Shown: one piece after another, positions 13,692-64,000 of the stretch
Numbering within the stretch: the first letter of the stretch is position 1
How the letters are laid out: every line of letters starts with the position of its first letter
DNA from: an uncultured Dehalococcoidales bacterium
GTDB taxonomy: Bacteria; Chloroflexota; Dehalococcoidia; Dehalococcoidales; BS750m-G39
Assembly: GCA_964505425.1 (NCBI GenBank)
Contig: CAZDHX010000004.1
Coordinates: 17,722-81,721 of the forward strand
DNA: 64,000 nt
Direction of reading: 5' to 3'
The notes under the pieces: model-generated
Told to the model about the DNA's origin: nothing
The model's input: only the letters and a program-made list of their open reading frames with translations
Databases searched by the model: none
Translations under genes and position numbers: made by a program

Positions 13692-13711
13692 GACTGCATA
13701 CCTCCTTGCTT

Positions 13712-15010: not shown

Positions 15011-15025
15011 TTCCTCCCACCTTTC

Positions 15026-16084: not shown

Positions 16085-16102
16085 GCTGCCACCTTATTAT
16101 GT

Positions 16103-17962: not shown

Positions 17963-18039
17963 CTTTCTCCCAAAACAAGATTATGGTCTCTTTCCCTCGG
18001 CCGTCCTGTGGCAGACCGGGCAGGACAGCCAGCTAATTT

Positions 18040-19110: not shown

Positions 19111-19156
19111 CCTAACCTCCTTATTGAAGCGAGAGAGTTGACACCTTGCTACCTAT

Positions 19157-20185: not shown

Positions 20186-20220
20186 CTTTACCTCCTAAGA
20201 TTTTGTCTCGCTCTCATTAC

Positions 20221-20688: not shown

Positions 20689-20690
20689 GT

Positions 20691-21554: not shown

Positions 21555-21555
21555 G

Positions 21556-23964
21556 CTACTTCCCTTCCTTTACCGCTAGCGCTTTCAAGATGGGCTCGCC
21601 TGAGATGGGCGGTATCTTGATTCTGACACCGACCGCGTCATACACGGCGTTGGCTATTGCCGGTGCAACTGAGCCTATACCTGCCGATTCACCCCCTCCT
21701 TTACACCCGTAGGCAAATCCAGGCTCAATGGACTCGATAAAAATCTTCTGAATAGGAGGCACGTTGGTCGCTAGAGGCACTTTGTAGTCATCGAAGTTGG
21801 GGTTAATGATTTTACCCGTCTTGCCGTCGACCATTATTCCTTCCATCAGCGCGGCTCCGATGCCCTGGGTTGTGGCGCCGTCTACCTGGCCTTCGAGTTG
21901 TTGCCGGTCAATGACCTTGCCGCAGTCGTCGGCTACTACTACATTTAGCAGTTTCACCAGTCCGGTCTCTTTATCGACCTCAACCTCAGCTATTACTGCA
22001 TCGTAGTAAGTGGCGTCGACACCACGGCCGTAGTGGGTCGAATGGCTGCTCTTAAGAATGTACTCGGTTTCAAGCCGCTCCTCTACTCCCTTGCCTACAA
22101 TCATCGAGCCTTCCCGCCTATGAACAGCGTAGTTCCCAATTTCAGCTAAAGTAAGTGATTTCTTCGGCTCGCCAACAACACTCACTTTACCCTTTTTGAA
22201 CTCTAGCTTATCCGGTGCTATGCCCAACATTAGCGAGGCGGTCTCAATTATCTGTTTCTTGGTGTCCTGACAGGCTAAATATGTCGCATTTACCCCCTGT
22301 GACATGATTCTTGAGCCGTGAGCACCCCATCCCCAGGGGACCCGGTCCGTGTCCTGCGGTACTAACTCGATATTTTCCAATGGTACGCCAAGCTCTTCAG
22401 CAACCACCATGGCAAAGGCGTTATGCACTCCCTGGCCATACTCGGCCTCACCAACCAGCAACTGTACTCCGCCATCCTCAAGCAGCTTGACATGAGCGAC
22501 ACTTCCGTAGAAACCGTCCGACGCCCGGTCATCAGTTTCGTGGCACATGCAGCCGATGCCTATACCTATGTTAGCCTGCTTATTTGCCCTCTTTTCCTTC
22601 CATCCTGCCGCCTCGGTCGCCTTCTTGATGCAGTCAGTAAATCCGCAGCTCCTGATAAACCACCCGGCGGGCGTAATGTCACCGGTTTGCGTAGCGTTCT
22701 TGAGCCTCAACTCTGCTGGGTCCATCCCCAGCTTTTCAGCCAATATGTCCATGAGCGATTCACGTGCCCAGGACATCTGAGCATCCCCGAAGCTCCGATA
22801 CGTACCGGGAGGTGTCTTATTGGTATAAATATTCTTGAAGGTGTGTCTTACATTCTTAAACCTGTAAAGAGCATCATTGCGTTCAAGCATGTGAAGTGAC
22901 CGGCGGTGCATCAGGTACTGAAAGGCGCCATTGTCCACCAAAATATCGGTAATCTCGGTGGTTAAGGTACCATCTTTCTTAGCGCTGAGCTTCATCCGTA
23001 TCGTCATATCGCCACGCGAGCGAATCAGCATGAAATCTTCAGTGCGTGTCCTGATTAGTTTTACCGGTCTTGCCGTCTTCATCGAGAGCAGAGCGGCAAT
23101 ATGGTGTAACTGAAGTGCGGTGAATTTGGAGCCAAAAGCCCCACCCACCGCCTCCTGGATAACTCTGAGCTTGGAGAGAGGGAGCCTGAGGTTATGAGCA
23201 ATCACATCCCGTATGTTAGATGGCCACTGGTTGCCTACCCAGAGAGTCAACTTCCCTGTCCCGATGTCATAGTCAGCAACACACCCTTGCGGCTCCATGT
23301 AGGCCGCCACCACATTGGTATATTTGAACTCATCTTCGACAACAATGTCCGCTTCTTTTAAGCCTTGTTCTACATTGCCCCGGTCATAAGTGACCCCCCA
23401 TGCGATGTTGTTCTTGATTTTGACCGGCTGGTAGGTTATCTGGTCTTTGTTGAGTTCAAATATCTCGTCATGTACCTGCGGCGCCCCTGGTTTCATGGCA
23501 TCGTCTACATTGAATACGCCGGGCAGTTCTTCGTATTTGACCTTTATCAACTCCAGTGCTTGCTCGGCTATCGCTTCGTCCGTCGCAGCTACAGCAGCGA
23601 CCTCCTGACCAACAAATCTCACTTTGCCGTCCCAGGCTAATATCGGTTCGTCCTTGACATCAATGCCTGGGTTATACATTCCATGGACATCCTTGCCCGT
23701 TATAACCGCCTTGACGCCAGACAGTTGCTCTGCCTGACTGGTGTCGATGGAGAGGATTCTGGCATGAGCGTACGGCGACCTCAGCACTTTAGCATACAGC
23801 ATACTTGGTGACAACACATCATCAGTGTATCTGGCTTTCCCAGTCGTTTTGCTCTTGGCGTCAATCCTACTGACTCTTGTACCAATCACGCTATAAGTGT
23901 CTTTGCGTTGGGTCCAATAACTTATTCTGTCTTTAACTTCGTCAGTCAGTACTTTGTCGTCCAT
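21556..23964 (-). CDS. Molybdopterin-binding large subunit of a xanthine dehydrogenase / aldehyde oxidase family enzyme (CoxL/HcrA-like)
   Basis: 802 aa. N-terminal a/b-hammerhead pattern (VIGTRVSRIDAKSKTTGKARYTDD), GGAFGSK, and a C-terminal GGGESAG motif. Confidence 0.85.
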   Translation of the reverse strand: MDDKVLTDEVKDRISYWTQRKDTYSVIGTRVSRIDAKSKTTGKARYTDDVLSPSMLYAKVLRSPYAHARILSIDTSQAEQLSGVKAVITGKDVHGMYNPGIDVKDEPILAWDGKVRFVGQEVAAVAATDEAIAEQALELIKVKYEELPGVFNVDDAMKPGAPQVHDEIFELNKDQITYQPVKIKNNIAWGVTYDRGNVEQGLKEADIVVEDEFKYTNVVAAYMEPQGCVADYDIGTGKLTLWVGNQWPSNIRDVIAHNLRLPLSKLRVIQEAVGGAFGSKFTALQLHHIAALLSMKTARPVKLIRTRTEDFMLIRSRGDMTIRMKLSAKKDGTLTTEITDILVDNGAFQYLMHRRSLHMLERNDALYRFKNVRHTFKNIYTNKTPPGTYRSFGDAQMSWARESLMDILAEKLGMDPAELRLKNATQTGDITPAGWFIRSCGFTDCIKKATEAAGWKEKRANKQANIGIGIGCMCHETDDRASDGFYGSVAHVKLLEDGGVQLLVGEAEYGQGVHNAFAMVVAEELGVPLENIELVPQDTDRVPWGWGAHGSRIMSQGVNATYLACQDTKKQIIETASLMLGIAPDKLEFKKGKVSVVGEPKKSLTLAEIGNYAVHRREGSMIVGKGVEERLETEYILKSSHSTHYGRGVDATYYDAVIAEVEVDKETGLVKLLNVVVADDCGKVIDRQQLEGQVDGATTQGIGAALMEGIMVDGKTGKIINPNFDDYKVPLATNVPPIQKIFIESIEPGFAYGCKGGGESAGIGSVAPAIANAVYDAVGVRIKIPPISGEPILKALAVKEGK

Positions 23965-51756: not shown

Positions 51757-52059
51757 CTAAGGTTTTACGAATCCCATTCTGCTCTTAGTAACTGGCTCCG
51801 GCGCTTCCACAATCTTGCCAAACTGCTGCTCGTATTTCTTCATGTTATCCTGGAGGGCAGATACGGTCCTTTTCGTATGGCCCGGGCTCATTATTACACG
51901 AGCCGTAACGGTCGGTTCTGGCGCCGCCGCCAGTATAAAGTCCATAATGAACTCTTCCTTAGTATGGGTAACGACCATCATATTGCAATAAGCGCCACGT
52001 CTAATTTCGTCAGTTAGCCTGATTTTTATCCCCTGCGGTGGTTTAGGTTGCTCTGCCAT
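51757..52059 (-). CDS. DUF3467-like protein
   Basis: IKIRLTDEIRRGAYCNMMVVTHTKEEFIMDFI...ARVIMSPGHTKR..ALQDNMKKYE. I prefer the ATG at 52059 (GGAGGTGG upstream) over 52146. Confidence 0.65.
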   Translation of the reverse strand: MAEQPKPPQGIKIRLTDEIRRGAYCNMMVVTHTKEEFIMDFILAAAPEPTVTARVIMSPGHTKRTVSALQDNMKKYEQQFGKIVEAPEPVTKSRMGFVKP

Positions 52060-52215
52060 ACTTCCACCTCCATTCAAGGCTATTGTATCGCTAAATAAAT
52101 GGAAGTCAATAGGTAACATAATTGCTATTGGTGCTTGTTGGGGCAATGAGAAGAGGACTTATGTTAAGAACGGGCTATATTATGTCAACTGCACTATTTT
52201 GGCGGGCAATAAAGA

Positions 52216-52235
52216 GGGATTTTAGCTAAAATCCC
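52216..52235 (-). terminator. Weak terminator-like hairpin after the 52244..52777 gene
   Basis: gggatttta / taaaatccc arms. The trailing T-tract on the minus strand is only partial (CTCTTTATTG). Confidence 0.3.
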
Positions 52236-52243
52236 CTACTGGC

Positions 52244-52777
52244 TCAGCTGAACTGTAGCCATAAAGTAAATAAACTGATTGTTAACGCGCCCAGAGCAAA
52301 TGAGGCTGTTGCCCACACCACCTCGATAGTCGCCATATCCCGGAAATGCCGGGCGTAGTCTTCATATCTCTCCATGAGCTCGTTCATGGATGTCTGAAAC
52401 TCCTTCAGGTTTAGGGTCTCCCTAGCTAGCTTCTTGGCGTCCTTCTCAACGCATTTTATAGCTTCCTCAAGTGGGAGTGACGCCCAGCTTGAAATATCCC
52501 TAACGTGCTGAGGCCACAGCCACCTGGCCGCTTTCTGGAAGCGCTCTATTCTCTTCTGCATCCCCGCTTGCAGCGTTTTAGCCCTTTCTGCAATCTTGCA
52601 CTTTTTGCCATCTGTTATTGCCACTGGGCCAGCCTCAAAATCATGCATTGCATAATGTATAGCGCCTCGAGCTCCATCACTCATCCAGACCATTCTCATC
52701 CAAGCCAGATAACGGAAAATCCGGACCAGCCCGAAAAGCCCCAGGGCTACACCTACAGCAAATATGATCCAGTACAA
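52244..52777 (-). CDS. Hypothetical membrane protein with N- and C-terminal TM helices
   Basis: 177 aa. Hydrophobic ends (YWIIFAVGVALGLFGLV; WATASFALGALTISLFTLWL) flank a charged helical middle. It lies 18 nt downstream of the oxidoreductase gene. Confidence 0.5.
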   Translation of the reverse strand: MYWIIFAVGVALGLFGLVRIFRYLAWMRMVWMSDGARGAIHYAMHDFEAGPVAITDGKKCKIAERAKTLQAGMQKRIERFQKAARWLWPQHVRDISSWASLPLEEAIKCVEKDAKKLARETLNLKEFQTSMNELMERYEDYARHFRDMATIEVVWATASFALGALTISLFTLWLQFS

Positions 52778-52795
52778 TTTACAGAGTTCCCCCTC

Positions 52796-55294
52796 TTAGA
52801 ACAGGTCTTCTAACTCCCGATTGCCCTCGGGCATCTGGCCGTGCCGGGCACTATACTGCTGGAGGAGCTCACTCTCCCGCTTGGTATACATCGGCTCCTC
52901 TTCATACATAAAGTAACGAGCTTTCTGCTGCGTTTTTAGCTGCTCCCCTAGCTCCCGGCACAGGTTCATTGCCCCCTTAATATAAATAACGTTCTTATCG
53001 GCGTCCAGCAACTGGTAGACGCCCTCTGTTTCGGGGGCTTGCCCCACGTTTTCAGCGGTGAATTCCAGCCAGAGTTCCTCTTTCGGCACCATAATGGGCT
53101 TTGAGATGAGAAGCCTGAGGTCGCACCGGAGGCAGCGCCCGGCTTCACCGGTAGCTTCTTCCTTGCCAAAGCCCAGCTCCACGGTGTTGAAGTTAGCCAC
53201 GCGCTCCTTAACGGGTATACACGGCACGGGAACCCTGGGCTTGTCGGCAAACCCCTCCTCACGCCCCAGGCAGGGACTGGCTGGCTCGGCATCAACCAGC
53301 GTCTCCTCTATCTTCCCCTCCCCTCCCAGGTAGCTATCAATAGAGCCAGCCGCCTTTCTGCCGGCAGCAATAGCCTCAACGACCGAAGCCGTCCCGCTCA
53401 CAGCGTCACCGGCGGCGAAGACCCCCGCCCTGCCGGTAGCCAGTGTAGCCTCATCAACCTCAAGGGTACGCCTCTTGCCGGTCTTAATAGCGCTGATTCC
53501 CTCAACCAGCTCCAGTTCGGGCAGCTGACCTATGGCAAAGATAACGGTATCTGCCGGTAAAACGTGCTCCGAAGCCTCAATACACTCAACGCTGAGCTTG
53601 CCTTCTTTATCAAAGCTAAAGCTCTTGACATCAAGGCACTCAACGCCGCTGACATGCCCGTTATCGCCCACAATGCGGCTAAAGCTCTGCGAGTTATGTA
53701 AGGTAATCCCCTCCTCACCACCCCAGCTGCACTCTTCGGGGGTAGCTAACATACCACTAGCCTCTTCAAGGCAGGCTATATGGACATCCTCGGCCCCCAG
53801 CCTCAGCGCGGTGCGGGCGCAGTCAAAGGCGACATTACCACCGCCGAGAACGACCACCCTACTGCCCACCTTGACCTCTTCGCCCAGATTAACCTCCCGG
53901 AGAAACTCAGTGTTGAGCAGAACGCCGTCAAGCTCAGCGCCGGGGATGGGCAGCGTCTGCCCCCGGTGGGCGCCGACGGCTATCAATACCACATCGTAGC
54001 CCTCCTCCAGGAGTTTAGCCACCGATTCAACCCTGGTATCGGTCTTAATCTCAACACCGACGCTCTTTATGTCATCTATTTCTTTGTCCAGCACCTCTGA
54101 GGGCAGGCGGTGTCTGGGGATGCCGACTCGCATCATGCCGCCGACTACGGGCAGGGCTTCGAAAACGACCACGCCATGCCCCAGCTTAGCTAGATAGTAG
54201 GCGGCGGTCAGCCCCGCCGGTCCTGAGCCGACGATAGCCACCCGTTTACCAGTAGCCGGCATCTTCTTGACCTTCTGCCTCCAGAGACCGGTATCATTCT
54301 CGGCGGCAAAGCGTTTAAGAGCTCTTATGGCTATCGCTTCGTTCACATCGCGGCGCCGGCATTCCTCCTCACAGAAGTGAAGGCAGATATACCCCAGGAC
54401 GGCGGGGAAAGGGGCCTTCTCCCGGATTACAGCTACCGCCTCAGGGTATTTCCCCTCTTTTATGAGGCGTATATAGCGGGGCACGTCTATCCCCGCCGGA
54501 CAGGCGCCTGTACAGGGAACTTCCTTAAACGGCTCTGTATCCGCCAGGGCACCCGTGGGGCAGACCTCGACGCAGGCGGTACAGAAGCGGCAGGCTGATT
54601 CTCTAAGCGTCGGGCTGACACTGCCCACTATCACCCTGCCCGCCTCGTCAAAGACGAAATCAATAGCCTCCACCCCCCGTAAATCCCGGCAGGCACGAAT
54701 GCAGCGCGTGCAGCCGATACAGAGGTTGTAATCGCGCTCAAATAGAGGCTCTTTGATAACCGGCAGGTCTTCAAAGACATAGCGTGGGGTCTCCTGCTTA
54801 ATGCCGATGTACTCCACCAGCCTCTGGAACTCGCAGTTGCCGAACTTGGGGCAGCACCGCTCGTTCTCTGGGATGTTCATCGAGCAGGGAAAGCGGGCGC
54901 AGCCCTCCTTCTGGGCACAGGTCAGGCAGGCATGGGGGTGCTTGGCGAGAAGGAACATAAGCTTATCACGGCGGTACTCCTCAAGCTCAGGGGTATTGGT
55001 GCTAACCACCATACCCTCAGCTACCTTTGTGGAGCAGGCCCGGTGAAACCCTTCCCTCCCCTCAATCGCCACCACGCAGAGCTGGCAGCCCTCATAGGCA
55101 AGCTCAGGCTTTTTATTATCTATGCGTTTGCCTTCACGATAGACAGCCTGAGTTGGTTTAAGCTTTTCTATGGGGGGAAGGTCGGGGTGGGAACAGAGGT
55201 GGGGGATATAAATCTCCGCCTGCTGGGCAGCATCCAGTATCGTTGTCCCTTCTGGTACGGTGACTTCAGCGTTGTCAATAGTTAGCTTAGCCAT
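52796..55294 (-). CDS. Multi-domain NAD(P)H oxidoreductase: N-terminal 2Fe-2S and 4Fe-4S (NuoG/HndD-like), GltD/SudA-like FAD-NAD(P) module, and a C-terminal GIY-YIG-like extension
   Basis: N-terminus KLTIDNAEVTVPEGTTILDAA..IPHLCSH. Fe-S motifs CIGCTRCIRACR and CRFCTACVEVCP. Dinucleotide folds VAIVGSGPAGLTAAYYL and VVVLGGGNVAFDCA. The last 96 aa read GVYQLLDADKNVIYIKGAMNLCRELG...KRESELL...MPEGN. Confidence 0.75.
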   Translation of the reverse strand: MAKLTIDNAEVTVPEGTTILDAAQQAEIYIPHLCSHPDLPPIEKLKPTQAVYREGKRIDNKKPELAYEGCQLCVVAIEGREGFHRACSTKVAEGMVVSTNTPELEEYRRDKLMFLLAKHPHACLTCAQKEGCARFPCSMNIPENERCCPKFGNCEFQRLVEYIGIKQETPRYVFEDLPVIKEPLFERDYNLCIGCTRCIRACRDLRGVEAIDFVFDEAGRVIVGSVSPTLRESACRFCTACVEVCPTGALADTEPFKEVPCTGACPAGIDVPRYIRLIKEGKYPEAVAVIREKAPFPAVLGYICLHFCEEECRRRDVNEAIAIRALKRFAAENDTGLWRQKVKKMPATGKRVAIVGSGPAGLTAAYYLAKLGHGVVVFEALPVVGGMMRVGIPRHRLPSEVLDKEIDDIKSVGVEIKTDTRVESVAKLLEEGYDVVLIAVGAHRGQTLPIPGAELDGVLLNTEFLREVNLGEEVKVGSRVVVLGGGNVAFDCARTALRLGAEDVHIACLEEASGMLATPEECSWGGEEGITLHNSQSFSRIVGDNGHVSGVECLDVKSFSFDKEGKLSVECIEASEHVLPADTVIFAIGQLPELELVEGISAIKTGKRRTLEVDEATLATGRAGVFAAGDAVSGTASVVEAIAAGRKAAGSIDSYLGGEGKIEETLVDAEPASPCLGREEGFADKPRVPVPCIPVKERVANFNTVELGFGKEEATGEAGRCLRCDLRLLISKPIMVPKEELWLEFTAENVGQAPETEGVYQLLDADKNVIYIKGAMNLCRELGEQLKTQQKARYFMYEEEPMYTKRESELLQQYSARHGQMPEGNRELEDLF

Positions 55295-55613
55295 TTAGGG
55301 AGTTCTGCCCATAGAGGAGCTTCCAGCCATCGGAGTGGGAGATAGCGCCAAACTCGCAGGCGGCAGCACAGGGTGCGGGGTTCTCTCCAAAACCAGGCTT
55401 GCAGGGGGCGCAGGTGTACCTCAGCTTCTTGCGCTCCCCGGCAACTACCTTGACCACCGGCTCTTCGCGGAAGGGGTCATATTCATCCTCACCGACCTCA
55501 AGTGCCTTCATTGGGCAGACCTCCACGCACTTGCCGCAGCCGTTGCACTTGTCGGTGTCAACGCTCAGAAACCAGTCCCCCGACCCGTCTTTGAAACCGT
55601 AATTAGCTAACAA
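55287..55613 (-). CDS. 2x[4Fe-4S] ferredoxin (BzdM/Fdx-like)
   Basis: CNGCGKCVEVCP plus CAPCKPGFGENPAPCAAACE (Cx2Cx11Cx3C, a long spacing reminiscent of Alvin-type low-potential ferredoxins). TTG start. 108 aa. Confidence 0.75.
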   Translation of the reverse strand: MLANYGFKDGSGDWFLSVDTDKCNGCGKCVEVCPMKALEVGEDEYDPFREEPVVKVVAGERKKLRYTCAPCKPGFGENPAPCAAACEFGAISHSDGWKLLYGQNSLNG

Positions 55614-55625
55614 CTTCGCCTCGCT

Positions 55626-56558
55626 TCACGCTTTTCTGGCGCTTTGCGCCTTGCCTCTCTCCAGCATGGCAAAGGCAAAGAGGGCAGCGCCAATTCCGCC
55701 AGCAATCTGGGTGTCAAAGGGGAGACCCTTGTCCTTCATCTTGGGGTCATGCCAGGCCTTCTCCATAGATTTGACGCCCAATTCCTTCTCCAGCCGCTTC
55801 ACTACCCCCTCATTCTTGGCGATGCCGCCGGTGATGGCAAATTTCTCCTCCATACCCAGGCGGTTTAATAGCTCGGTTATGCGATGAGCCATAGCCGCGC
55901 AATAAGCCGCCATAATATCGTTCTCGGGCACCCCCTCCTGGAGCAAGCCAACGACCTCGGTCTTGGCAAATACCACGCAGGTGCTACTTATCATCGGCGG
56001 TTCCTTTTCAATCTGGAAGGAGCGAGGGCCAATCTCCCAGACCGGGACCCGGATGAGGTCAGCAAATACCTCCATACCCCGCCCGGTGCCGGCGGCGCAC
56101 TTATCATTCATCATGAACTTCATCACCTTACCCCGCTCGTCGCAGCGGATAGCCTTACAGTCCTGACCACCCATATCCAGCACCGTCCGTATCTCCGGAC
56201 CGTACATGAAGTTAGCTCCCCGGGCATGGCAGGCGATTTCGGTTATTGTTTGCTGAGCCATAGGGACATTTACCCTACCGTAGCCCGTCCCGATGCAATA
56301 GTCAATGGTATCGACCTTCAGGTCGCTTTCCTTCAATGCCATGTTCACGCACTTCAAAGCGCTGTCAGGGCTATTGGAGCCGGTGCGGGTATTGCTATAG
56401 GCATAGAGCTGACCATCAACCATGATTACTGCCTGTGAGCTAACGGAACCAACGTCAACCCCGGCAGTAACAAACTTACCCTTTTTCCAGTCTACGTCGG
56501 GGTTCACCCACGAGGTCTCGGGCCACCTCCAGAATTCTACCTTCTTGGCCTCAACCAT
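55626..56558 (-). CDS. Benzoyl-CoA reductase ATPase subunit-like protein (BcrA/BzdQ-like; BcrAD_BadFG family)
   Basis: Acetate/sugar-kinase fold GVDVGSVSSQ and cluster-bridging Cys motifs NDKCAAGTGRG and STCVVFAKTEV. 310 aa. Confidence 0.75.
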   Translation of the reverse strand: MVEAKKVEFWRWPETSWVNPDVDWKKGKFVTAGVDVGSVSSQAVIMVDGQLYAYSNTRTGSNSPDSALKCVNMALKESDLKVDTIDYCIGTGYGRVNVPMAQQTITEIACHARGANFMYGPEIRTVLDMGGQDCKAIRCDERGKVMKFMMNDKCAAGTGRGMEVFADLIRVPVWEIGPRSFQIEKEPPMISSTCVVFAKTEVVGLLQEGVPENDIMAAYCAAMAHRITELLNRLGMEEKFAITGGIAKNEGVVKRLEKELGVKSMEKAWHDPKMKDKGLPFDTQIAGGIGAALFAFAMLERGKAQSARKA

Positions 56559-56576
56559 TGCTCATCCCTCCTTTTA

Positions 56577-57407
56577 TTAAGCCTTCCCCTCTTCAATCTG
56601 CTCTTTTTCCACGACCTTAGCCTCTACCTTCTCCTCAAGCACGCCGGCAGCGGCGGCAGTAGCTGCCCCTAGGGCGCTAACGAAATCGGGGTCGTCGGGC
56701 ACCTTCACCTCCATGCCAAGGTCCCTCTTCAGAGACTCGATAAACCCCGGGTTCTTAGCCACTCCGCCAATCATGACCACATCCTTCTCCAGCCCGACGA
56801 TGCGGGCTACAGAGCCAATCCTGCCGGCGATGGCGTCGTGGACAGCACGGGCGATATCGTGCTTTGGCGTCTTCTGATGAATCAAGGAGACCACCTCAGA
56901 CTCGCCAAAGACGGCGCACTGGGCATTCATGGGGATAGATTGTGTGGACTTGAGTGACAGCTTTGCCATTTCCTCTATTGGCACCTCCAGTGCCCGGGAC
57001 ATAGTATCAACAAAGGTGCCGGTACCGGCAGCACACCTCTCATTGATGGCAAAGTCCAAAACCTTGCCCTCGGGGCTGATCTTCATTGCCCGACCTTCCT
57101 CACCCCCAACGTCAATGATGGTTCTGGCTGAGGGGATAAGCTTAATCACCCCTCTGGCATCAGCAGCAGCATCAGGGATGACACCGTCAGCGAAGGTAAC
57201 CCTTGCCCCGGAGCTACCGGTAGCTACCACCCGGCTAATATCCTCGCGCTTGAGTCCAGCCTGCTCGAGTGCCTCCGCATACAGTTTCTCCGCCGCCTCC
57301 GCCTTACTAATCCCGGTGGGTCCTCCAACCTTAGCTAATATGGTGCCATTCTTGGTGATAATAATATGTACATTCTTACCACCAACGTCTATTCCGGCAG
57401 ATATCAT
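56577..57407 (-). CDS. Benzoyl-CoA reductase ATPase subunit-like protein (BcrD/BzdP-like; BcrAD_BadFG family)
   Basis: Motifs GIDVGGKNVH, NERCAAGTGTF and AQCAVFGESEV. 276 aa. It is a paralogue of, not identical to, the 55626..56558 product. Confidence 0.75.
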   Translation of the reverse strand: MISAGIDVGGKNVHIIITKNGTILAKVGGPTGISKAEAAEKLYAEALEQAGLKREDISRVVATGSSGARVTFADGVIPDAAADARGVIKLIPSARTIIDVGGEEGRAMKISPEGKVLDFAINERCAAGTGTFVDTMSRALEVPIEEMAKLSLKSTQSIPMNAQCAVFGESEVVSLIHQKTPKHDIARAVHDAIAGRIGSVARIVGLEKDVVMIGGVAKNPGFIESLKRDLGMEVKVPDDPDFVSALGAATAAAAGVLEEKVEAKVVEKEQIEEGKA

Positions 57408-57430
57408 GCTGTCCCCCTTTCTAGGCCTTG

Positions 57431-58750
57431 TTAATCGGCTACTTTCTTGAGCCCCAGGGTCTCAGTAACGAAGAGGTCAATAAATCGCTTCGTCCGACCC
57501 TCGTCAAACTCTCTCTCGTCAGCCATGTTGCCTTCAAAGGTCATTACCGGCAACCCCAGCTTTTGCACCGCTATCTTCATCTCCATCTGGTGCTGGGCAG
57601 TGCCTTCGCAACCGCGGTTAAGGTGTATTATTGACGCATCGCATTTCCACTGCTGGGCAATCTTGGTTATAATATCGTTCTTGTACTTGGCTCCATAAAA
57701 CGGCGCCCACATCAGCTTGCCCTTAAGCTCACCTTCAGCTAAAAGTTTCAGGGCATGGTCACGGTCCTTGATGGTTATGCCCTGTTCCTCAAGGGTGGGA
57801 TAGGGCACGAGCTTCCCCGCCTTGTTTATCTTCCACCAGCCGATGAGGGAGAAGGTGTAAAGGCTGGCTACCGAGACGATGCCATACTTCTCCAGATAGC
57901 GGAAGATGCGGAGAAAGCCCCAGGGTGGCTGGCTATCACCCAGCACACGGCATTGCTCGTCAGCTACCGCCGCAATCTTATTAGCCACCCGGTCCTTCAC
58001 CTCAGGATAGAGCAGGTTCTTATAAAAGTCAGCGATGTCCTTGTTTGACTTTTCCAGGGTTCCAAGAACGTATAAGGAGAACATCGTCTTCTCATCAAGA
58101 GGCGCCGGGACAGCCTGGTTAAGCTCGCATGCCTTTGCCCAGTAGCAGGCAGAATCATAGGTATTTTTGACATTCTGAATCAGCTTCTCGTCAACAATCT
58201 TCCTCTTGGTGACCTTCTCCAGGAAGTCAATACCATCGTGAAGCTGCTCCACCACATAGTTTATCTGGCGCTCCCCTATCTTGTCGTAGGCGCCAGCCCC
58301 GACGTCAAAGCAGAAGAAGGGAATATCGCCGCCTTCAATCTCATCGGCTACCTGAAGCCACTTTGCGTGGGAGCAGCAGATATGGTTCTGAAAGATGAAG
58401 TCCACCTTGGGCCACTCCCCACCGAAGGCGAATTCATTGAGGACTATAGAGCCCCAGTAGTTGCGCAGGTAGGCGCACAGGTCTCGAGCACAGCCCCACT
58501 TACCTTCAGCCGCCTCCTGATACTTGACCTGTAGCTCGGGGTTAGCCCCCACGCTGGCTCCATAGGGCTCTTCAGTAAGCCCATGCACCTCACCCTCAAG
58601 CGCCTGGGGAATGGCATCAAAACTCCAGGCTCCCCCCTCCCAACGCAAAGCCCCCCGGTCATGCGCCTCCTTATAGTCCTTATAATAATTTGCCCTCAGT
58701 TCCTTAGCCCTGTTCCAGCAATCTAGGCCCTTTGTTTTATACTTTGCCAT
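57431..58750 (-). CDS. Benzoyl-CoA reductase / 2-hydroxyacyl-CoA dehydratase catalytic subunit family (BcrB/BzdO-like)
   Basis: 439 aa, HgdA/BcrB-family size with matching Cys content (HICCSHAKW, LNRGCEG). Placed between the C-like subunit and the ATPases. Confidence 0.7.
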   Translation of the reverse strand: MAKYKTKGLDCWNRAKELRANYYKDYKEAHDRGALRWEGGAWSFDAIPQALEGEVHGLTEEPYGASVGANPELQVKYQEAAEGKWGCARDLCAYLRNYWGSIVLNEFAFGGEWPKVDFIFQNHICCSHAKWLQVADEIEGGDIPFFCFDVGAGAYDKIGERQINYVVEQLHDGIDFLEKVTKRKIVDEKLIQNVKNTYDSACYWAKACELNQAVPAPLDEKTMFSLYVLGTLEKSNKDIADFYKNLLYPEVKDRVANKIAAVADEQCRVLGDSQPPWGFLRIFRYLEKYGIVSVASLYTFSLIGWWKINKAGKLVPYPTLEEQGITIKDRDHALKLLAEGELKGKLMWAPFYGAKYKNDIITKIAQQWKCDASIIHLNRGCEGTAQHQMEMKIAVQKLGLPVMTFEGNMADEREFDEGRTKRFIDLFVTETLGLKKVAD

Positions 58751-58768
58751 CTTTCCCCCCTAATCTTT

Positions 58769-59923
58769 TTAGACAAATAGTTCCTCAGCCTGTATCTGCT
58801 CCAGGAACGCTTCCACACGGATACGGAACTGACCTACGGGAACAGTAACCTCAAATTCAAGGAAGTAACAAGGGATGCCGTTGCTCTCCAGAAACCGCCT
58901 CAGGCTTGGGATATCAAGCTCATGGGGGTCACAGAACTTCTGCTGAATCAGGATTACCCCCTGAACGCGGTAGTCCTTAGCCAGCTGCAGGATATGTCCG
59001 AAGCGCTTCCTTGAGATATCCTCCATCCCCCAGTCCTTATTGGGACAGGGCACCCGGTCGCAGTAGCGGTTGGCAATAGCCTGAAGCCGGTTCTTATCCG
59101 GGACGACCTCATCCCAGAAATACCTTGAGCCGGTACAGTGGTCCTCAATAACAAAGGTGCCCCCTATTGACTCCACCATCTCCATAAAGGGACGGTCATC
59201 ATTCTCGCTGCCAACAATCATCAGGCGGACACCGGTATCGCGCTCAAGCTTCCGCTGGGGCAAGGTGGCGACTAGCTGCTTTAGCAGGTCATTCTGCTCT
59301 CTCTTATCCATAAGCTGGCTTGCCCAGACCATGGTCATGGCTTCGGTGCCGGTAAGCGGCGGATTGTCCGCTTTACGCAGTTCGTAGACCTGCTTCATCA
59401 AGCGCCGGTTGGTATTCATAATGTCTATGCCCTCGTCCAGCTCTTTATCGGTGATTTTTGCTCCTGTCCATTCCTCTATCGCCTTCTTAAAATCTTCCAA
59501 CTCCCCTCTCAAGAACTTCTTGGCTCTAGGGCTGCGCACGGCATTGGGCATAGCAAACCAGTAATTCCACGGGGTTGGCACATGAATTGTCCAGGCACCA
59601 AAAGCCTGGCGTGGGTGGAGACAACAGTTAGTCGCCATTATCCCATCCAGGTAGTCATATTTCCCCTGCAGCCCCTGATTCAGGCAGTCGCGGGAGAAAG
59701 GACACCACATGTCAAACATGTGTGGCGTAGCCAGGGTAGGTGCCTCATGACCACCCAGTATGCGGACGGGAAGGACATTAGCGGCATACAGGACCTCCTC
59801 CGGCTCATAGGTACAGAAGTAACCTACTACCTTGCCCCCTGTTCTCCGCTTCCAATCCTTAGCATATTCATGCCGTAATTCCCAGACATCACCGAACTGC
59901 TTTAGGATTTCAGATGCTTCCAT
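58769..59923 (-). CDS. Benzoyl-CoA reductase / 2-hydroxyacyl-CoA dehydratase catalytic subunit family (BcrC/BzdN-like)
   Basis: 384 aa with KVVGYFCTYEPEEVLYAANVLPVRILGG, MWCPFSRDC and IEDHCTGSRYFW. Confidence 0.7.
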   Translation of the reverse strand: MEASEILKQFGDVWELRHEYAKDWKRRTGGKVVGYFCTYEPEEVLYAANVLPVRILGGHEAPTLATPHMFDMWCPFSRDCLNQGLQGKYDYLDGIMATNCCLHPRQAFGAWTIHVPTPWNYWFAMPNAVRSPRAKKFLRGELEDFKKAIEEWTGAKITDKELDEGIDIMNTNRRLMKQVYELRKADNPPLTGTEAMTMVWASQLMDKREQNDLLKQLVATLPQRKLERDTGVRLMIVGSENDDRPFMEMVESIGGTFVIEDHCTGSRYFWDEVVPDKNRLQAIANRYCDRVPCPNKDWGMEDISRKRFGHILQLAKDYRVQGVILIQQKFCDPHELDIPSLRRFLESNGIPCYFLEFEVTVPVGQFRIRVEAFLEQIQAEELFV

Positions 59924-59957
59924 ATCTTCCCCCCTTAATTAACTGTGCTCTGGGTTC

Positions 59958-60818
59958 TTAATACTCACTGAATACCGAGTCAAAATACTTATTAGCTTTA
60001 TCAGCGAGCAGGTCATGATATTCGCGGAATAAGGCTGCCGCCCTGGGTCGCAGCCAGTACTCAGGCAAAAGCTCCACCGGCAGGTCAGGGTCAAAGAAGG
60101 GTAGCTTGCGGTATTCATGGATTAACCCAAACCTCTCGACAAAGCACTCGCTGGGTTCAATGGTCTCACCGGCACGAGTGCGTCTCAGGTGATCATCAAG
60201 CTTGGGCTCATATTTCTGGGTGAAACTGGCATATTTCTGGTGTATCCGGCTTAAGTCCCAAACAAGGGATACCATCTTTTTCGGGTCGGTAAAGCCCTGG
60301 TCTCTAGCCTGAAATACCTGAATATAATCCCTGATATTAAGCCTTTCCCCCAGCTCCTCCACTTCCTTGGTTAAGTCATAGGGTGAAATCCAGGTAGCCT
60401 CAGTAAGAGCGCCGTAACCCATCCAACTCAGCTCAAGGCGCAACCTGTCCCTCGCCTCGCGTTTTTGCTCGGGAATAGAGTAAGTAACAATATTCCAGCT
60501 GCCGTCCCAGTGGGAGTTCTTCCGCTCAAAGATGCGCTTGGCGCCCTTGGTCAGCAGCTGGTGGCCATCCTCAGTCAAGGAGTAGTAGCTCCTCCGCCCT
60601 ACCCGCCTCACCTTCAACAGCCCGGCACGGCACATCCTGGATACTGCCGAGCGTACTGCCTGCTGGGACAGACCAAGATTACCAAGCAGCTCTATCAGGC
60701 TACCGATTCCAATCTCACCTCCACGTTTAAGGAGATAATCGCCATAAAGGGTGAGAATAGCCGCCTGGGGGCGAAATGTAAATGTAACTCCTAACAAGTG
60801 CTTGCCTCCATATGTCAC
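59958..60818 (-). CDS. paaX: PaaX-family transcriptional regulator
   Basis: LTLYGDYLLKRGGEIGIGSLIELLGNLGLSQQAVRSAVSRMCRAGLLKVRRVGRRSYYSLTEDG closely follows the E. coli PaaX N-terminal pattern as I recall it. The likely true start is the TTG at 60797 (GGAGG 7 nt upstream) rather than the GTG at 60818. Confidence 0.85.
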   Translation of the reverse strand: MTYGGKHLLGVTFTFRPQAAILTLYGDYLLKRGGEIGIGSLIELLGNLGLSQQAVRSAVSRMCRAGLLKVRRVGRRSYYSLTEDGHQLLTKGAKRIFERKNSHWDGSWNIVTYSIPEQKREARDRLRLELSWMGYGALTEATWISPYDLTKEVEELGERLNIRDYIQVFQARDQGFTDPKKMVSLVWDLSRIHQKYASFTQKYEPKLDDHLRRTRAGETIEPSECFVERFGLIHEYRKLPFFDPDLPVELLPEYWLRPRAAALFREYHDLLADKANKYFDSVFSEY

Positions 60819-60825
60819 TTTATCT

Positions 60826-60850
60826 TTATGGCGTATTTTTTACGCCATAA
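60826..60850. promoter_or_regulatory. Inverted repeat at the predicted paaX transcription start (candidate operator or 5'-UTR hairpin)
   Basis: ttatggcgta-ttttt-tacgccataa: 10-bp perfect arms with a 5-nt spacer. Confidence 0.5.
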
Positions 60851-60853
60851 AAA

Positions 60854-60882
60854 ATTTTACCATATTAAGATGGCATTGTCAA
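60854..60882 (-). promoter_or_regulatory. Sigma-70-type promoter for the paaX-led operon
   Basis: Minus strand reads TTGACA (60882-77), a 17-nt spacer, then TAAAAT (60859-54). Confidence 0.6.
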
Positions 60883-61032
60883 TACTCTTTGGGTAACTTA
60901 AGTGAGATTAGATGTGGTTAAGTGAGCTCGGGTGACTATTGCATCTTTAACGCCTTGGTGCTATTATATTTGGAATACGAATGATTTCTATGCCGTTCAA
61001 GTCATATGCCTTCAACAAATAGAGGTACCAAA

Positions 61033-61764
61033 ATGAAGCTATTTGTCATCTTTCCTGCTCGGAATGAGAGCAAGACTATAGCTCAGTGCATTGAAACCGC
61101 CAAGAAAAGCAAATATGAGCCGGAGGTACTGGTGGTTGACGGTTTCTCATCAGATACCACCAAGAAAGAGGCTACTAATGCTGGTGCCATAGTCATAGAC
61201 CAGAGCGAAGGCGTCTACCCGGGTAAGGGTAGAGCCCTTAAGGACGGTATAAGGGAGGTAATTAGGAGGGGGGCGGATTACATCCTGTTTCTGGATGCCG
61301 ATATTGTCAATCTGACGCCGGAATGGGTCAACAAATTAGCTGAGCCCGTGATTGAAAAAGACTTTGATATGTCACGGGGCTATTACCGAAGAGCCGAATA
61401 TGACGGTGCCGTTACCAAGCTGGTAGCCAGGCCGCTTTCCTGGGTCTTCTTCCCTGAGATTTCTCACTTTGAACAGCCGCTCTCCGGCGAAATATGTGCC
61501 ACCACTGAACTGTTCAAGAGCCTGCTTGATAGCCGAGACTGGCCCGATGGCTGGGGCATAGATATCTGGCTATTAGTAGAGTCTGCCATGAAGGACTACC
61601 AGATTGTTGAGGTATATTTAGGGACCAAGGTGCACACCTCCAGACAGGACTACCTGGCTGATGTGGTCAGACTGGCCAAGATGGCAGAGCAGGTATCGCT
61701 GACGACCTTCAAGGAAGCGATAAAATACAAACGGGTAGATAACGTAAAAAAGGTCCAACTGTAG
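61033..61764 (+). CDS. Family-2-type glycosyltransferase (glucosyl-3-phosphoglycerate synthase-like)
   Basis: Motifs VIFPARNESKTI, LFLDADI (DxD) and QPLSGE. I prefer the ATG at 61033 over 61006. Confidence 0.7.
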   Translation: MKLFVIFPARNESKTIAQCIETAKKSKYEPEVLVVDGFSSDTTKKEATNAGAIVIDQSEGVYPGKGRALKDGIREVIRRGADYILFLDADIVNLTPEWVNKLAEPVIEKDFDMSRGYYRRAEYDGAVTKLVARPLSWVFFPEISHFEQPLSGEICATTELFKSLLDSRDWPDGWGIDIWLLVESAMKDYQIVEVYLGTKVHTSRQDYLADVVRLAKMAEQVSLTTFKEAIKYKRVDNVKKVQL

Positions 61765-61908: not shown

Positions 61909-64000
61909 CTACGCTCTCTCCACCCTAACCGCACAGACTTTATACTCCGGTATCTTGGCTACCGGGTCAACTACCGGGTTGGTCAACATGTTTGCCGGGC
62001 TCTCGGCAAAGTGGAAGGTCATAAATACCACCCCCACCGGCGAGGTCTCAGTTACTCTGGCTTTGGTTTTTACCTCTCCCCGTCTGGAGACGACCTTAAC
62101 CGTCTCACCATCCTTTACCCCTAAAGCCTTAGCATCAGCCGGGTTTACCTCTATCCCCTCCCCTTTCAGCATATTAAGTCCCTCTACCCTCCGTGTCATA
62201 GTGCCGGTATGAAAATGATACAGGCTCCGCCCCGTGGTCAGCACCAGGGGATATTCTTTATCCGGCAGCTCCGCCGGCGGCTTATACTCAAGGGGGATAA
62301 ACTTGCCCTTACCCCGGGTGAACTGCCTGCTATGAAGGATGGGCGTCCCGGGGTGGTCTCTGGTCGGGCATGGCCACTGCAGTCCGCCTTTTTCCAGACG
62401 TTTATAGCCGATACCGCCGTAGCTGGGGGTGAGTGAGGCTATCTCATCCATTATCTGGGAGGGATTTCTAAAATCAAAGCCCTTCCCCATCCTCTTCCCA
62501 AGCTGACAGGTAATCCACCAATCGGGCTTGGAGCTGCCTATCGGCTCTATCGCCTTTCTTACCCTCTGCACCCTTCTTTCGGTATTGGTGAAGGTGCCAT
62601 CTTTTTCGGCAAAGCTCGCCCCGGCTAAGACGACATCAGCCAGCTGGGCAGTCTCGGAGGGAAATATGTCCTGGACGACAAGAAATTCAAGTTTTGCCAG
62701 CGCCTCACGGGCGTGGCTAATGTCAGGCTCACTGAGCGAGGGGTTTTCGCCGATAATGTAGAGCGCCTTTATCTTGCCACGGTAGGCGGCATCAAATATC
62801 TCGGTTATGGTCAGCCCAGGGGTCGGATTTAGCTTGCCGCCCCAGGCTTGCTCAAACTTCTTCCTGACATCAGGGTCACCGACCGCCTGATAGCCGGGAT
62901 AGACGCTAGGCAGGGCGCCCACGTCACAGGCACCCTGGACATTGTTCTGACCGCGGAGGGGGTTTACCCCGGTTGACGGCTTGCCGACATTGCCGGTGAG
63001 CATGGCTAAATTAGCGGTAGCAATGACGTTGTCGGTGCCGTGGGAGTGCTGAGTGATGCCCATAGAATATAGAATAGAGGACGGCTTGCTGGTAGCATAT
63101 ACTCTGGCGGCTTCAACGAGCTTCTCTTTGGGCACACCGGTAGTACGCTCCACAAAGTCAAGGTCAAAGCCCTTCAGCAAGCGCTTAAAGGCCTCAAAAT
63201 TTTCACACCTCTCCTTGATAAAGCCGAGGTCAAGGAGCTTTTCATCAACGATGACCTTCGCCATCCCCATGAGCAGGGCGACATCGCTCCCCGGCTTGTG
63301 CCGGAGCCAGGTATGGCTGAAGCGCACCAGGTCAATCTCCCTGGGGTTGGCAACAATTAGCTTTGCTCCGTTGTTTACCGCCCGCTTTACCTCAAGCCCG
63401 ATTATGGGGTGGGCTTCGGTGGTGTTGGTGCCGATAGCCAGGATGCACCCGGCGTCTCTTATCTCGTTTATGGAGTTGGTCATCGCCCCGCTACCAAAAC
63501 TCTGCGCCAGACCGGCGACAGTTGGGGCGTGGCAGAGGCGGGCGCAGTGGTCAACATTGTTTGTCCCCAGAACAGCCCGGGCGAACTTCTGGGCAATATA
63601 GTTTTCTTCATTGGTGCCCTTGGCTGAGGTAATCACCGCTACCTCTTCTGGTTTATAACCGCCAAGCCTCTGGGCAACAAGCTCCAAAGCCTCATCCCAG
63701 CCTGCCTCGGTAAACTCACCGTCTTTCTTGATAAGGGGGGATTTCAGGCGGTCGGGGTGGTGAACAAAGTCAAAGCCATACCTCCCCTTGACACATAGCC
63801 AGCCGTTATTAACGGTGCCATCTCTCTTGCCGCGGACACCTACTAACTGCCCGTGACGGGTGCCCAGATAAATTCCACAGCCAACCCCACAATAGGGACA
63901 GGTGGATGCCACTTCTTCTACCGGTCGCTCAGCTTTTTTAGGCATAAGGGCAGCCACCGGGCAATGGGCAACGCACTCCCCGCAGGAGACGCAATTTGAC
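61909..64000 (-). CDS. Formate dehydrogenase alpha-subunit-like molybdopterin oxidoreductase, Cys-type. The N-terminus lies beyond the right edge.
   Basis: Motifs TCPYCGVGCG and DHCARLCHAPTVAGL (Cys where Sec-type enzymes have U). The frame stays open upstream of the track's GTG at 63957 and encodes ...NCVSCGECVAHCPVAAL, a 4Fe-4S motif, so the gene continues past 64000. Confidence 0.85.
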   Translation of the reverse strand, partial: SNCVSCGECVAHCPVAALMPKKAERPVEEVASTCPYCGVGCGIYLGTRHGQLVGVRGKRDGTVNNGWLCVKGRYGFDFVHHPDRLKSPLIKKDGEFTEAGWDEALELVAQRLGGYKPEEVAVITSAKGTNEENYIAQKFARAVLGTNNVDHCARLCHAPTVAGLAQSFGSGAMTNSINEIRDAGCILAIGTNTTEAHPIIGLEVKRAVNNGAKLIVANPREIDLVRFSHTWLRHKPGSDVALLMGMAKVIVDEKLLDLGFIKERCENFEAFKRLLKGFDLDFVERTTGVPKEKLVEAARVYATSKPSSILYSMGITQHSHGTDNVIATANLAMLTGNVGKPSTGVNPLRGQNNVQGACDVGALPSVYPGYQAVGDPDVRKKFEQAWGGKLNPTPGLTITEIFDAAYRGKIKALYIIGENPSLSEPDISHAREALAKLEFLVVQDIFPSETAQLADVVLAGASFAEKDGTFTNTERRVQRVRKAIEPIGSSKPDWWITCQLGKRMGKGFDFRNPSQIMDEIASLTPSYGGIGYKRLEKGGLQWPCPTRDHPGTPILHSRQFTRGKGKFIPLEYKPPAELPDKEYPLVLTTGRSLYHFHTGTMTRRVEGLNMLKGEGIEVNPADAKALGVKDGETVKVVSRRGEVKTKARVTETSPVGVVFMTFHFAESPANMLTNPVVDPVAKIPEYKVCAVRVERA

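Follow-up and report, generated by a model that had tools for sequence, protein, structure and literature searches.

How does a strictly anaerobic member of the Chloroflexota control an ATP-dependent ring reductase, how are electrons supplied to this enzyme, and which ring does it reduce? These questions are raised by a gene cluster in a 64,000-nucleotide stretch of DNA from an uncultured Dehalococcoidales bacterium (GenBank assembly GCA_964505425.1, contig CAZDHX010000004.1, positions 17,722 to 81,721; the whole stretch is called the window here), where a gene for a PaaX-family regulator precedes genes for a benzoyl-CoA-reductase-like enzyme. A model that had seen only the letters of the window (the original prediction) had described the cluster as a paaX-led operon in which the genes for an ATP-dependent, benzoyl-CoA-reductase-like enzyme of four subunits are accompanied by those for its ferredoxin and a dedicated NAD(P)H oxidoreductase. 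This description is supported by equivalog models, by matches to BzdN and BzdO and by the conservation of cluster ligands. The catalytic module appears to be an ordinary, routine member of the Bzd-type class I family. The regulatory part appears to be new, as it consists of a PaaX-type repressor and a conserved operator that, in close relatives, are also predicted before a class II reductase. Our proposal, which is held with somewhat more confidence than doubt, is that a distinct Dehalococcoidia subfamily of PaaX and a 23-bp operator form a portable benzoyl-CoA-sensing cassette placed before BzdNOPQ, before the tungsten enzyme BamBCD and before had-oah-dch.

The regulator gene paaX is located at the head of the operon (59958..60797, minus strand). 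The longest open reading frame (ORF) at this place spans 59958-60818, with a GTG start at 60818 and a maximum of 286 aa. The true start is probably the TTG at 60797, which lies 7 nt behind a GGAGG and gives a protein of 279 aa, the length of PaaX called in close relatives. All three domains of the family (Pfam PaaX, PaaX_M and PaaX_C) are present with scores above the cut-offs (PF07848, 82.8; PF20803, 100.4; PF08223, 85.2), and the comparison with E. coli PaaX (8A39) gives 127.7 bits over ~250 residues. A sigma-70-type promoter (TTGACA, 17 nt, TG-n-TAAAAT; 60854..60882, minus strand) had been predicted at exactly this position; it agrees with the consensus at 11 of 12 positions and outranks every other site in the 9 kb scanned (52000-61100). 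Four nucleotides after its -10 hexamer begins the putative operator (60827..60849, strandless), a 23-bp palindrome of the form TATGGCGTA-N5-TACGCCATA. The repeat that had been noticed at 60826-60850 is thus real, and its core is a perfect 9+9 palindrome, TATGGCGTA-AAAAA-TACGCCATA, which widens to 11+11 at 60825-60851. The window contains no second copy, and the number of matches expected by chance is 0.

Both elements are conserved. The TTGACA/TAnAAT promoter is kept before paaX in 18 related loci, and promoter and box together stand before paaX in all close relatives. The consensus TATRGCGTW-N5-WACGCYATA (<=2 mismatches allowed) was found exclusively at these promoters in 1.36 Mb of fetched loci, and the GCGT and ACG of the box are invariant in the promoter alignment. 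A further motif, TGACATA (60811..60817, minus strand; with the preceding base, (A/G)TGACATA), is located 9 nt downstream of the palindrome, just 5' of the Shine-Dalgarno sequence, and is shared by bzd-linked and bam-linked promoters alike. It is conserved in 18/18 aligned promoters, with G, A, A and T invariant and the other positions at least 90% conserved. Two explanations of this motif were considered and rejected. Its reading frame is not conserved, which excludes a coding sequence, and the palindrome is not the centre of a larger symmetric operator in which TGACATA would mirror the -10 region, as the sequence outside the 23 bp shows no complementarity above background.

A scan anchored on PaaX returned 17 metagenome loci (related loci are denoted here by L and a number), and the box lies ~30-60 nt upstream of paaX in 16 of them. 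Ten of the loci run on into bzdN and six into a bamB operon. In the six bam-linked loci (L094, L098, L100, L101, L102 and L104), PaaX is 60-87% identical to the protein of the window, the box is present in five, and bamB after paaX is followed by bamC and bamD where the contig reaches (e.g., L100:3935-8650). The BamB homologue of L100 matches BamB of G. metallireducens (4Z3W_A) with 1091 bits and the BamC homologue matches BamC (4Z3W_E) with 259 bits; the next gene is BamD-like. In L017, the box precedes a longer series, thiolase-had-oah-dch-paaX-bzdNOPQ-Fd-V (Fd, ferredoxin; V, the oxidoreductase gene). In the Dehalococcoidales contig L014, box and promoter are located directly before bzdN, with no paaX between them. 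Upstream in the same contig (L014:1-650) there is a divergent helix-turn-helix gene, MarR-like by eye, and a second, unrelated perfect palindrome, TAGTCCTATATAGGA...TCCTATATAGGACTA. A decayed locus was also seen (L099:3970-5340), in which box and promoter are intact, paaX is split (96 and 154 aa) and bzdN is truncated to 141 aa, with the unrelated genes tsaC and ilvD directly after.

The order paaX-bzdNOPQ-Fd-V is also linked in the Anaerolineae loci L036, L044, L054 and L081, where PaaX is 50-54% identical. The Dehalococcoidia box is absent ~60 nt upstream of paaX in these four loci. Three of the four (L036, L044 and L054) share the sequence AAGGTGCGGTG downstream of a TTGC..-TATAA promoter, and a TGACA(C)ATA-like string was noticed before paaX in the Anaerolineae loci.

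What would such a regulator sense? The class II tungsten enzyme of G. metallireducens, BamBCDEFGHI (4Z3W), has the same substrate and product as BzdNOPQ but is non-homologous to it and ATP-independent. In close relatives, Bam stands behind the same promoter, operator and paaX as the Bzd-type enzyme; it is absent from the window. Because one cassette precedes two non-homologous benzoyl-CoA reductases, benzoyl-CoA is the simplest common signal. Benzoyl-CoA is likely to be the effector of the PaaX-like protein, and the shared product, the dienoyl-CoA, is possibly the effector instead. PaaX of E. coli and Pseudomonas represses the paa genes and responds to phenylacetyl-CoA. The regulator of the window shares its three-domain architecture, and the logic is likely to be the same, i.e., that of a repressor over the promoter, released by an aryl-CoA and controlling its own gene. 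The differences concern the site, the target and the gene order. The operator is a 9-N5-9 palindrome in the window and TGATTC-N27-GAATCA for E. coli PaaX (PMC9493321). The predicted targets are anaerobic ring reductases of class I or II, whereas E. coli PaaX controls the aerobic paa epoxidase pathway. Finally, paaX is the first gene of the catabolic operon in the window, while it belongs to a separate paaXY unit in E. coli and Pseudomonas. To our knowledge, no regulator of aromatic catabolism has been studied in the Chloroflexota. The known regulators of anaerobic benzoyl-CoA pathways are BzdR/BoxR, BadR/BadM, BamVW, BgeR and MbdR (PMC4424350), and no literature connecting PaaX to a benzoyl-CoA reductase was found.

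The seven ORFs of the predicted operon were found on the minus strand with matching coordinates and sizes in the ORF list of the window. From paaX to a further ORF at the 3' end (orf177), the successive intergenic gaps are 34, 18, 23, 18, 12, -8 and 18 nt, the first being the same as the predicted value. A G-rich ribosome-binding site precedes most of the operon genes; the exceptions are the ferredoxin gene and the gene for the 832-aa protein (here, V832). The first two catalytic genes are bzdN (58769..59923, minus strand, 384 aa) for the predicted [8Fe-9S] double-cubane subunit of the catalytic dimer and bzdO (57431..58750, minus strand, 439 aa) for the predicted active-site subunit with a [4Fe-4S]-OH2 cluster. 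Pfam places both proteins in HGD-D. N passes the NCBIfam equivalog TIGR03190 (475.9, cut-off 453.8) and O passes TIGR03191 (503.7, cut-off 448.6). In a PDB search, N is 53% identical to crystallised Aromatoleum BzdN (8s02_B, 462 bits) and O is 52% identical to BzdO (8s02_A, 460 bits). The next-best matches are HadC (147 bits) and MbdN (115 bits) for N, and HadB (90 bits) and MbdO (31 bits) for O. The HadB and HadC models are not passed (121 and 169 against cut-offs of 750 and 700).

The roles of the cluster ligands and pocket residues of BzdNO are known from structure 8S02 (PMC11971306), and the alignment places nearly all of them in the proteins of the window. N keeps the six cysteines of the [8Fe-9S] cluster (C37, C74, C101, C263, C293 and C331, aligned with C36, C73, C100, C263, C293 and C327) and the surrounding Arg/His shell (R54, R267, R290 and H334, aligned with R53, R267, R290 and H330). 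O keeps the three cysteines of the [4Fe-4S]-OH2 cluster (C92, C125 and C381), the acid/base pair Glu65 and His131 of Aromatoleum (as E61 and H128) and the residues that hold the benzoyl thioester, Trp46, Tyr97, Tyr298, Gln274 and Leu302 (as W42, Y94, Y298, Q274 and L302). The sole change among the checked active-site and pocket positions of O is Ser44 to Gly. Of the 86 aligned sequences, all 85 environmental ones, the window included, have Gly at this position, and Aromatoleum alone has Ser. The pocket positions of BzdO are invariant in the 86-sequence alignment, and only the second-shell residues Ala45 and Gln124 vary.

The two ATPase genes follow in the same direction. bzdP (56577..57407, minus strand, 276 aa) is predicted to encode the first, electron-activating subunit and bzdQ (55626..56558, minus strand, 310 aa) the second. 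Both proteins belong to BcrAD_BadFG in Pfam. Q passes TIGR03192 (397.4, cut-off 380.2), and P scores 194 bits against TIGR00241. There was no bzdP-specific model among the model matches of P, which is assigned from its position and family only. The cysteine motifs that had been described for each ATPase were located in both proteins, i.e., CAAGTG at C125 and CAVF at C164 in P, and CAAGTG at C154 and CVVF at C194 in Q. Two cysteines per subunit would be the number required for a single bridging [4Fe-4S] cluster. P and Q are distinct, as had been proposed, with 32% identity to each other. P orthologues at the same position in related loci are 50-94% identical. By this comparison, P and Q are old paralogues from an ancient duplication and not recent duplicates, because identities across phyla are far higher among P orthologues (50-59%) and among Q orthologues (60-69%) than in P-vs-Q cross-matches (34-39%). 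With the equivalog scores, NOPQ very probably represents a Bzd-type class I aryl-CoA reductase. The gene order N-O-P-Q and then a ferredoxin, which had been compared with that of Azoarcus bzdNOPQM, is present here and, likewise, in related loci.

The electron supply would involve the last two proteins of this series. The BzdM-like 2x[4Fe-4S] ferredoxin (55287..55613, minus strand, 108 aa), assigned from Fer4 families, has eight cysteines, C23, C26, C29 and C33 in a CxxCxxCxxxC motif and C68, C71, C82 and C86 in an atypical CxxCx10CxxxC motif. Its gene is located 3' of Q in nearly all related loci, with 43-90% identity. The gene for V832 (52796..55294, minus strand), a BzdV/ThnG-like Fe-S/FAD/NAD(P)H protein by its Pfam domains and its adjacency to the ferredoxin gene, starts 8 nt before the latter ends. 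Its Pfam domains are Fer2_4, NADH-G_4Fe-4S_3, two 4Fe-4S motifs, Fer4_20, Pyr_redox_2 and DUF7508. The N-terminus resembles NuoG/HydA ([2Fe-2S], His-ligated [4Fe-4S] and 2x[4Fe-4S]); it is followed by an NfnB/GltD-like module with 2x[4Fe-4S], FAD and NAD(P)H sites and by the C-terminal DUF7508. This last domain (52847-53077, residues 740-816) contains GVYQLLDADKNVIYIKG, which by eye resembles the GIY-(x9-11)-YIG nuclease motif. The nearest solved relatives of the flavin module are the NADPH-binding modules of NfnABC (9bov_A, 425 bits; 9n5u_A), StnC (8oh5_C) and NfnB (4ylf_B, 257 bits). Among 56 informative species loci, a V homologue stands immediately after the ferredoxin gene in 46 and further downstream in 4 more.

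A variant of this arrangement is informative. In L001-L004, L008 and L015 (e.g., L001:13473-20298), MvhD-, FrhB-, BamD- and HdrA-like genes are inserted between the ferredoxin gene and V. The BamD-like protein is 60% identical to the BamD that adjoins true BamBC, and L001-type loci thus combine BamD-, HdrA- and MvhD-like genes with bzdNOPQ. V itself is shortened in these loci to 716-719 aa by the deletion of the second Rossmann (NAD(P)H) subdomain (~residues 440-640); the rest is kept, DUF7508 included. Because the Hdr-like insertion coincides with the loss of exactly the NAD(P)H subdomain, there is good circumstantial evidence that full-length V832 takes electrons from NAD(P)H. The same pattern suggests that the short form is fed by the Hdr-like unit. 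The L001-type cluster resembles a class I reductase that has been connected to an Hdr-type electron module in the style of class II.

The following mechanism can be proposed. NAD(P)H would be oxidised at the FAD of the NfnB-like module in V832, and the electrons would travel along the Fe-S chain of this protein to the 108-aa ferredoxin, which would reduce the cluster of BzdPQ. MgATP hydrolysis would then lower the potential of this cluster, electrons would pass from BzdN to BzdO, and benzoyl-CoA would be converted into cyclohexa-1,5-diene-1-carbonyl-CoA. A dimer of the PaaX-family protein would occupy the 23-bp palindrome, which would overlap the transcription start, and would repress the whole operon, its own gene included. 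The binding of an aryl-CoA, most likely benzoyl-CoA, to this dimer would release it from the operator. Taken as a whole, this statement (a Bzd-type benzoyl-CoA reductase operon with its electron supply and its own repressor) is regarded as quite probable. A number of points weigh against it; they are given below together with the other explanations that they touch.

The first group of points concerns the electron donor. The proposed homology of V832 to Aromatoleum BzdV rests on database names and published annotations, e.g., a 57%-identical Dehalococcoidia protein with the NCBI name 'BzdV protein'. Moreover, the transfer of electrons from NADPH (~-320 mV) to a low-potential ferredoxin is uphill, so that the role of a plain NADPH:ferredoxin reductase is thermodynamically awkward, and V832 may need a second acceptor (bifurcation) or another donor. 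V832 could, according to a second explanation that is unlikely but retains a real chance, be a flavin-based electron-bifurcating unit, a hub for another donor or the beta subunit of an adjacent formate dehydrogenase. Its flavin module is indeed most similar to NfnB and to the large subunits of NfnABC and StnC, which come from bifurcating enzymes, and the Hdr-like insertions of L001-type relatives fit a donor hub. Nevertheless, the Pfam domains of V show no additional flavin or NAD site that could serve a high-potential branch, and NADH or NADPH alone sufficed for the Thn reductase in extracts of N47, the operon of which carries thnF (ferredoxin) and thnG (oxidoreductase) (PMC12016498). The link to formate dehydrogenase stems from the JGI name of V relatives, 'formate dehydrogenase beta subunit', and from a gene 1.1 kb upstream of paaX for FdhA, a Cys-type formate dehydrogenase alpha subunit (61909-64000, minus strand; listed as an ORF of 682 aa; TIGR01591 score 864, cut-off 666). 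However, V follows the ferredoxin gene in the 46 species loci mentioned above with almost no FdhA nearby, and a glycosyltransferase gene on the opposite strand (61006-61764) separates FdhA from paaX here. FdhA also has its own N-terminal Fe-S domain. A split StnC-like enzyme, in which FdhA would lack this domain and V832 would supply it, was considered and rejected, as the FdhA frame stays open up to the window edge and a 96%-identical copy in the near-identical contig L088 has an extra N-terminal Fer2/4Fe-4S domain. Upstream of this copy, L088 carries a separate gene fragment that is similar to the C-terminus of V832. By its position and these comparisons, FdhA is a unit separate from the reductase operon.

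The second group of points concerns the substrate. The original prediction had left it open between benzoyl-CoA, another aryl-CoA and a non-aromatic compound, and the question is now narrowed towards benzoyl-CoA, which is the likely substrate because the pocket is invariant in 86 sequences and because the same PaaX and operator precede bamB operons. We consider it quite unlikely that this Bzd-type class I enzyme reduces a substituted or bicyclic aryl-CoA in place of benzoyl-CoA and that the PaaX-like protein senses this ester. The candidates would be 5,6,7,8-tetrahydro-2-naphthoyl-CoA, as in ThnBCDE-ThnF-ThnG of N47 and NaphS2, and hydroxy- or methyl-benzoyl-CoA. The tetrahydronaphthoyl-CoA reductase ThnBCDE has the same gene layout (the comparison is by layout only), i.e., N-O-P-Q-like genes, a ferredoxin and an oxidoreductase in the same order, in strict anaerobes and with a regulator gene at the head of the operon, and its proteins have been annotated as 'bzd-type' and 'BzdV protein' (PMC6849830, PMC12016498). 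As in the proposed route for the window, NAD(P)H is usable as a donor in extracts.

The pathway context in the window is also in line with such a substrate. As had been predicted, no gene for a dienoyl-CoA hydratase, dehydrogenase or ring hydrolase (dch, had, oah) was found in the 64 kb by tblastn with proteins of related loci, and a benzoate-CoA ligase is likewise absent from the 64-kb window. In addition, a second aromatic-looking cluster (9106-23964, minus strand), identified by model matches of window proteins, indicates that substituted aromatics are handled nearby. Its UbiD enzyme passes the equivalog 'phenylphosphate carboxylase subunit beta' (612.5 against 468.95), and a two-subunit phosphoenolpyruvate-utiliser pair has a phenylphosphate-synthase-like architecture. 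Other members are an amidohydrolase, an ADI-like protein, a UPF0261 protein and a TRAP transporter. An XDH-family trio (20221-23964) was tried as a 4-hydroxybenzoyl-CoA reductase and rejected, with the best model (alpha) reaching 534.8 against a cut-off of 994.55. This cluster may also feed phenolic compounds towards benzoyl-CoA.

Nevertheless, the residues of Aromatoleum BzdO that contact the ring and the thioester are all invariant in the 86 sequences, and the cassette of the window is predicted to drive BamBC homologues with the scores given above for G. metallireducens. The thn operon comprises 22 genes, among them those for MaoC hydratases, ring-cleavage enzymes and a thiolase; none of these enzymes is present in the module of the window, and no thn-type MaoC hydratase or thiolase genes flank it. 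The partners found in relatives are, unlike those of thn, BamBC and the had and oah equivalogs of the benzoyl-CoA pathway, which adjoin paaX in relatives with a 74-80% identical BzdO. The description of the module as self-contained holds for this lineage but not for L005, L013, L015 and L017, where had and oah immediately precede paaX. At this place, L005 carries a dch-like gene and equivalogs of had (463 against 339) and oah (472 against 464); in L017, had (478), oah (445) and a dch-like gene follow a thiolase gene. Furthermore, a had-like gene lies directly 5' of bzdN in many Asgard loci.

The third group of points concerns the regulator and its site. The PaaX-like protein does not pass the phenylacetate regulator equivalog TIGR02277 (246.5, below the cut-off of 264.55); by these scores, it is a member of the family and not an orthologue of the paa-operon regulator. 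The E. coli-type box is no more frequent than expected (23 matches with <=3 mismatches against 23.35), and none lies in 60819-61005. Covariation between the arms of the palindrome was looked for and rejected, as the pattern is mostly one of conservation; both members change in two pairs, and a score this high is reached by 21 of 500 shuffles. In addition, the leader from ~60847 folds into a 7-bp hairpin (-12.6 kcal/mol, z = -3.2), and the palindrome could partly act as a 5' RNA hairpin. In its full form, this explanation takes the palindrome as a 5'-terminal stem-loop of the mRNA with a role in stability or translation, while the PaaX-like protein binds elsewhere or regulates other genes. It would benefit from the hairpin that remains with a start near 60847, from several arm differences that are G-U compatible and from the second conserved leader motif, TGACATA. 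It is, however, very unlikely. The box starts so close to the -10 hexamer, 4 nt past it, that its left arm is probably in part untranscribed. The mismatches, which affect five cells at one pair position and six cells at a second one while the site is retained, fit half-site recognition better than pairing. The box also moves with paaX to non-homologous operons (bzd, bam and thiolase-had-oah) and occurs without paaX just once, and the regulator has an intact winged helix-turn-helix PaaX N-domain.

The weakest alternative, a 2-hydroxyacyl-CoA dehydratase with duplicated activators, takes up the facts that Pfam alone gives just HGD-D and BcrAD_BadFG and that P is by score as near to the HadI activator (190 bits) as to MbdQ (180 bits), even slightly nearer, and it can be dismissed as practically negligible because N and O are far closer to BzdN and BzdO than to HadC and HadB and P and Q are divergent, each with its own orthologues across phyla, while the bzd-type equivalog cut-offs are passed, the Had models are not, and all six double-cubane cysteines are kept in N.

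How common is this module? A protein search returned 1660 relatives of BzdO at E <= 1e-20. The closest ones (74-96% identity) come from metagenome-assembled genomes of Dehalococcoidia and other Chloroflexi, and many are named 'benzoyl-CoA reductase, bzd-type, subunit O'. With one genome per species, at least 563 GTDB species encode a BzdO relative. A tally of titles among the best 80 of these gives ~18 Chloroflexota, 17 Asgard archaea and ~12 other archaea (Bathyarchaeia, Thermoplasmata and others), and Aminicenantes, Planctomycetota, Ignavibacteria, Zixibacteria and Gemmatimonadota are also represented in the best 80. According to tblastn with the proteins of the window, N-O-P-Q-Fd have the same order in related loci as far as the contig extends, and together with V they make up a six-gene module conserved in bacteria and archaea. 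Plasmids were also searched by tblastn for an annotated bzd cluster of the Aromatoleum type, with only distant dehydratase-family matches. The genes bzdNOPQ-bzdM-bzdV have been reported in the strictly anaerobic marine Chloroflexi single cells DscP3, Dsc4 and DEH-J10 (PMC5736913) and, likewise, in Hermodarchaeota (PMC8163825), in both cases read as a class I reductase of obligate anaerobes, and thnBCDE-thnF-thnG is present in the sulfate reducers N47 and NaphS2 (PMC12016498, PMC6849830). The original prediction had considered a class I enzyme unusual in a strict anaerobe. With these publications and the number of GTDB species, this view is outdated.

The best studied counterpart is BzdNOPQ-BzdM-BzdV of Aromatoleum (Azoarcus) sp. 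CIB. The order N-O-P-Q and then the ferredoxin gene is common to both, and so are all ligands of the [8Fe-9S] and [4Fe-4S]-OH2 clusters, with the identities of 53% (N) and 52% (O) and the Gly for Ser44 in the window already mentioned. An oxidoreductase annotated as BzdV also occurs in both, the label in the window coming from database names and published annotations. The host of the CIB cluster is a denitrifier, whereas the window comes from a strictly anaerobic Chloroflexota lineage. The CIB regulator is the XRE-type BzdR, which is encoded separately, while the window has a PaaX-family regulator inside the operon. In CIB, bzdS, bzdT and bzdU lie between the ferredoxin gene and bzdV; in the window, V comes directly after the ferredoxin gene. 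The operon of the window, unlike that of CIB, is without bzdWXY (dch/had/oah) and the bzdA ligase. The clusters of marine Chloroflexi and Hermodarchaeota have the same gene order as the window, including bzdM and bzdV, and those of Chloroflexi come from the same lineage at the phylum level. In these published clusters, Hdr-type genes behind the reductase match the L001-type variant, whereas the window has plain Fd-V without an Hdr-like insert and without adjacent dch, had or oah. The two papers contain zero mentions of PaaX and no operator (PMC5736913, PMC8163825).

The 3' end of the operon probably differs from what had been predicted. The seven genes stand, but the end at 52796 probably does not, since orf177 and a hairpin behind it probably belong to the same unit. 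orf177 (52244..52777, minus strand, 177 aa) is lineage-specific; it follows V832 after an 18-nt gap, has a GGGGG ribosome-binding site and, as read from its translation, a hydrophobic stretch at either end. It has no family match in Pfam or NCBIfam and no tblastn homologue in loci L001-L086, and the 6.8-kb contig L087 of the same organism carries it in the same position behind V. Eight nucleotides past its stop lies a terminator-like hairpin (52215..52236, minus strand) with a 9-bp stem and a T-rich tail, which is a consensus match only. orf177 is probably the last gene of the operon, and the transcription unit would then extend ~580 nt past 52796.

What does this mean for the Chloroflexota and for the family? 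If the proposal is true, anaerobic ring reduction would have its first regulator of the PaaX family, which would also be the first to be common to class I and class II enzymes. This regulator would provide a candidate benzoyl-CoA sensor for the Chloroflexota with an exact DNA target, and the repressor/operator pair could serve as a biosensor part. The module N-O-P-Q-Fd-V and its Hdr-type variant offer a biochemical target for the low-potential electron route to class I reductases outside denitrifiers. The 832-aa partner, if its proposed role is true, may be the hitherto missing component by which strict anaerobes supply a class I reductase with electrons from NAD(P)H. The occurrence of the same cassette before both reductases in near-identical backgrounds would imply that these organisms treat them as alternative solutions to one step. 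Such interchangeable reductases would bear on a long-standing question, namely why a strict anaerobe would spend ATP to reduce the ring.

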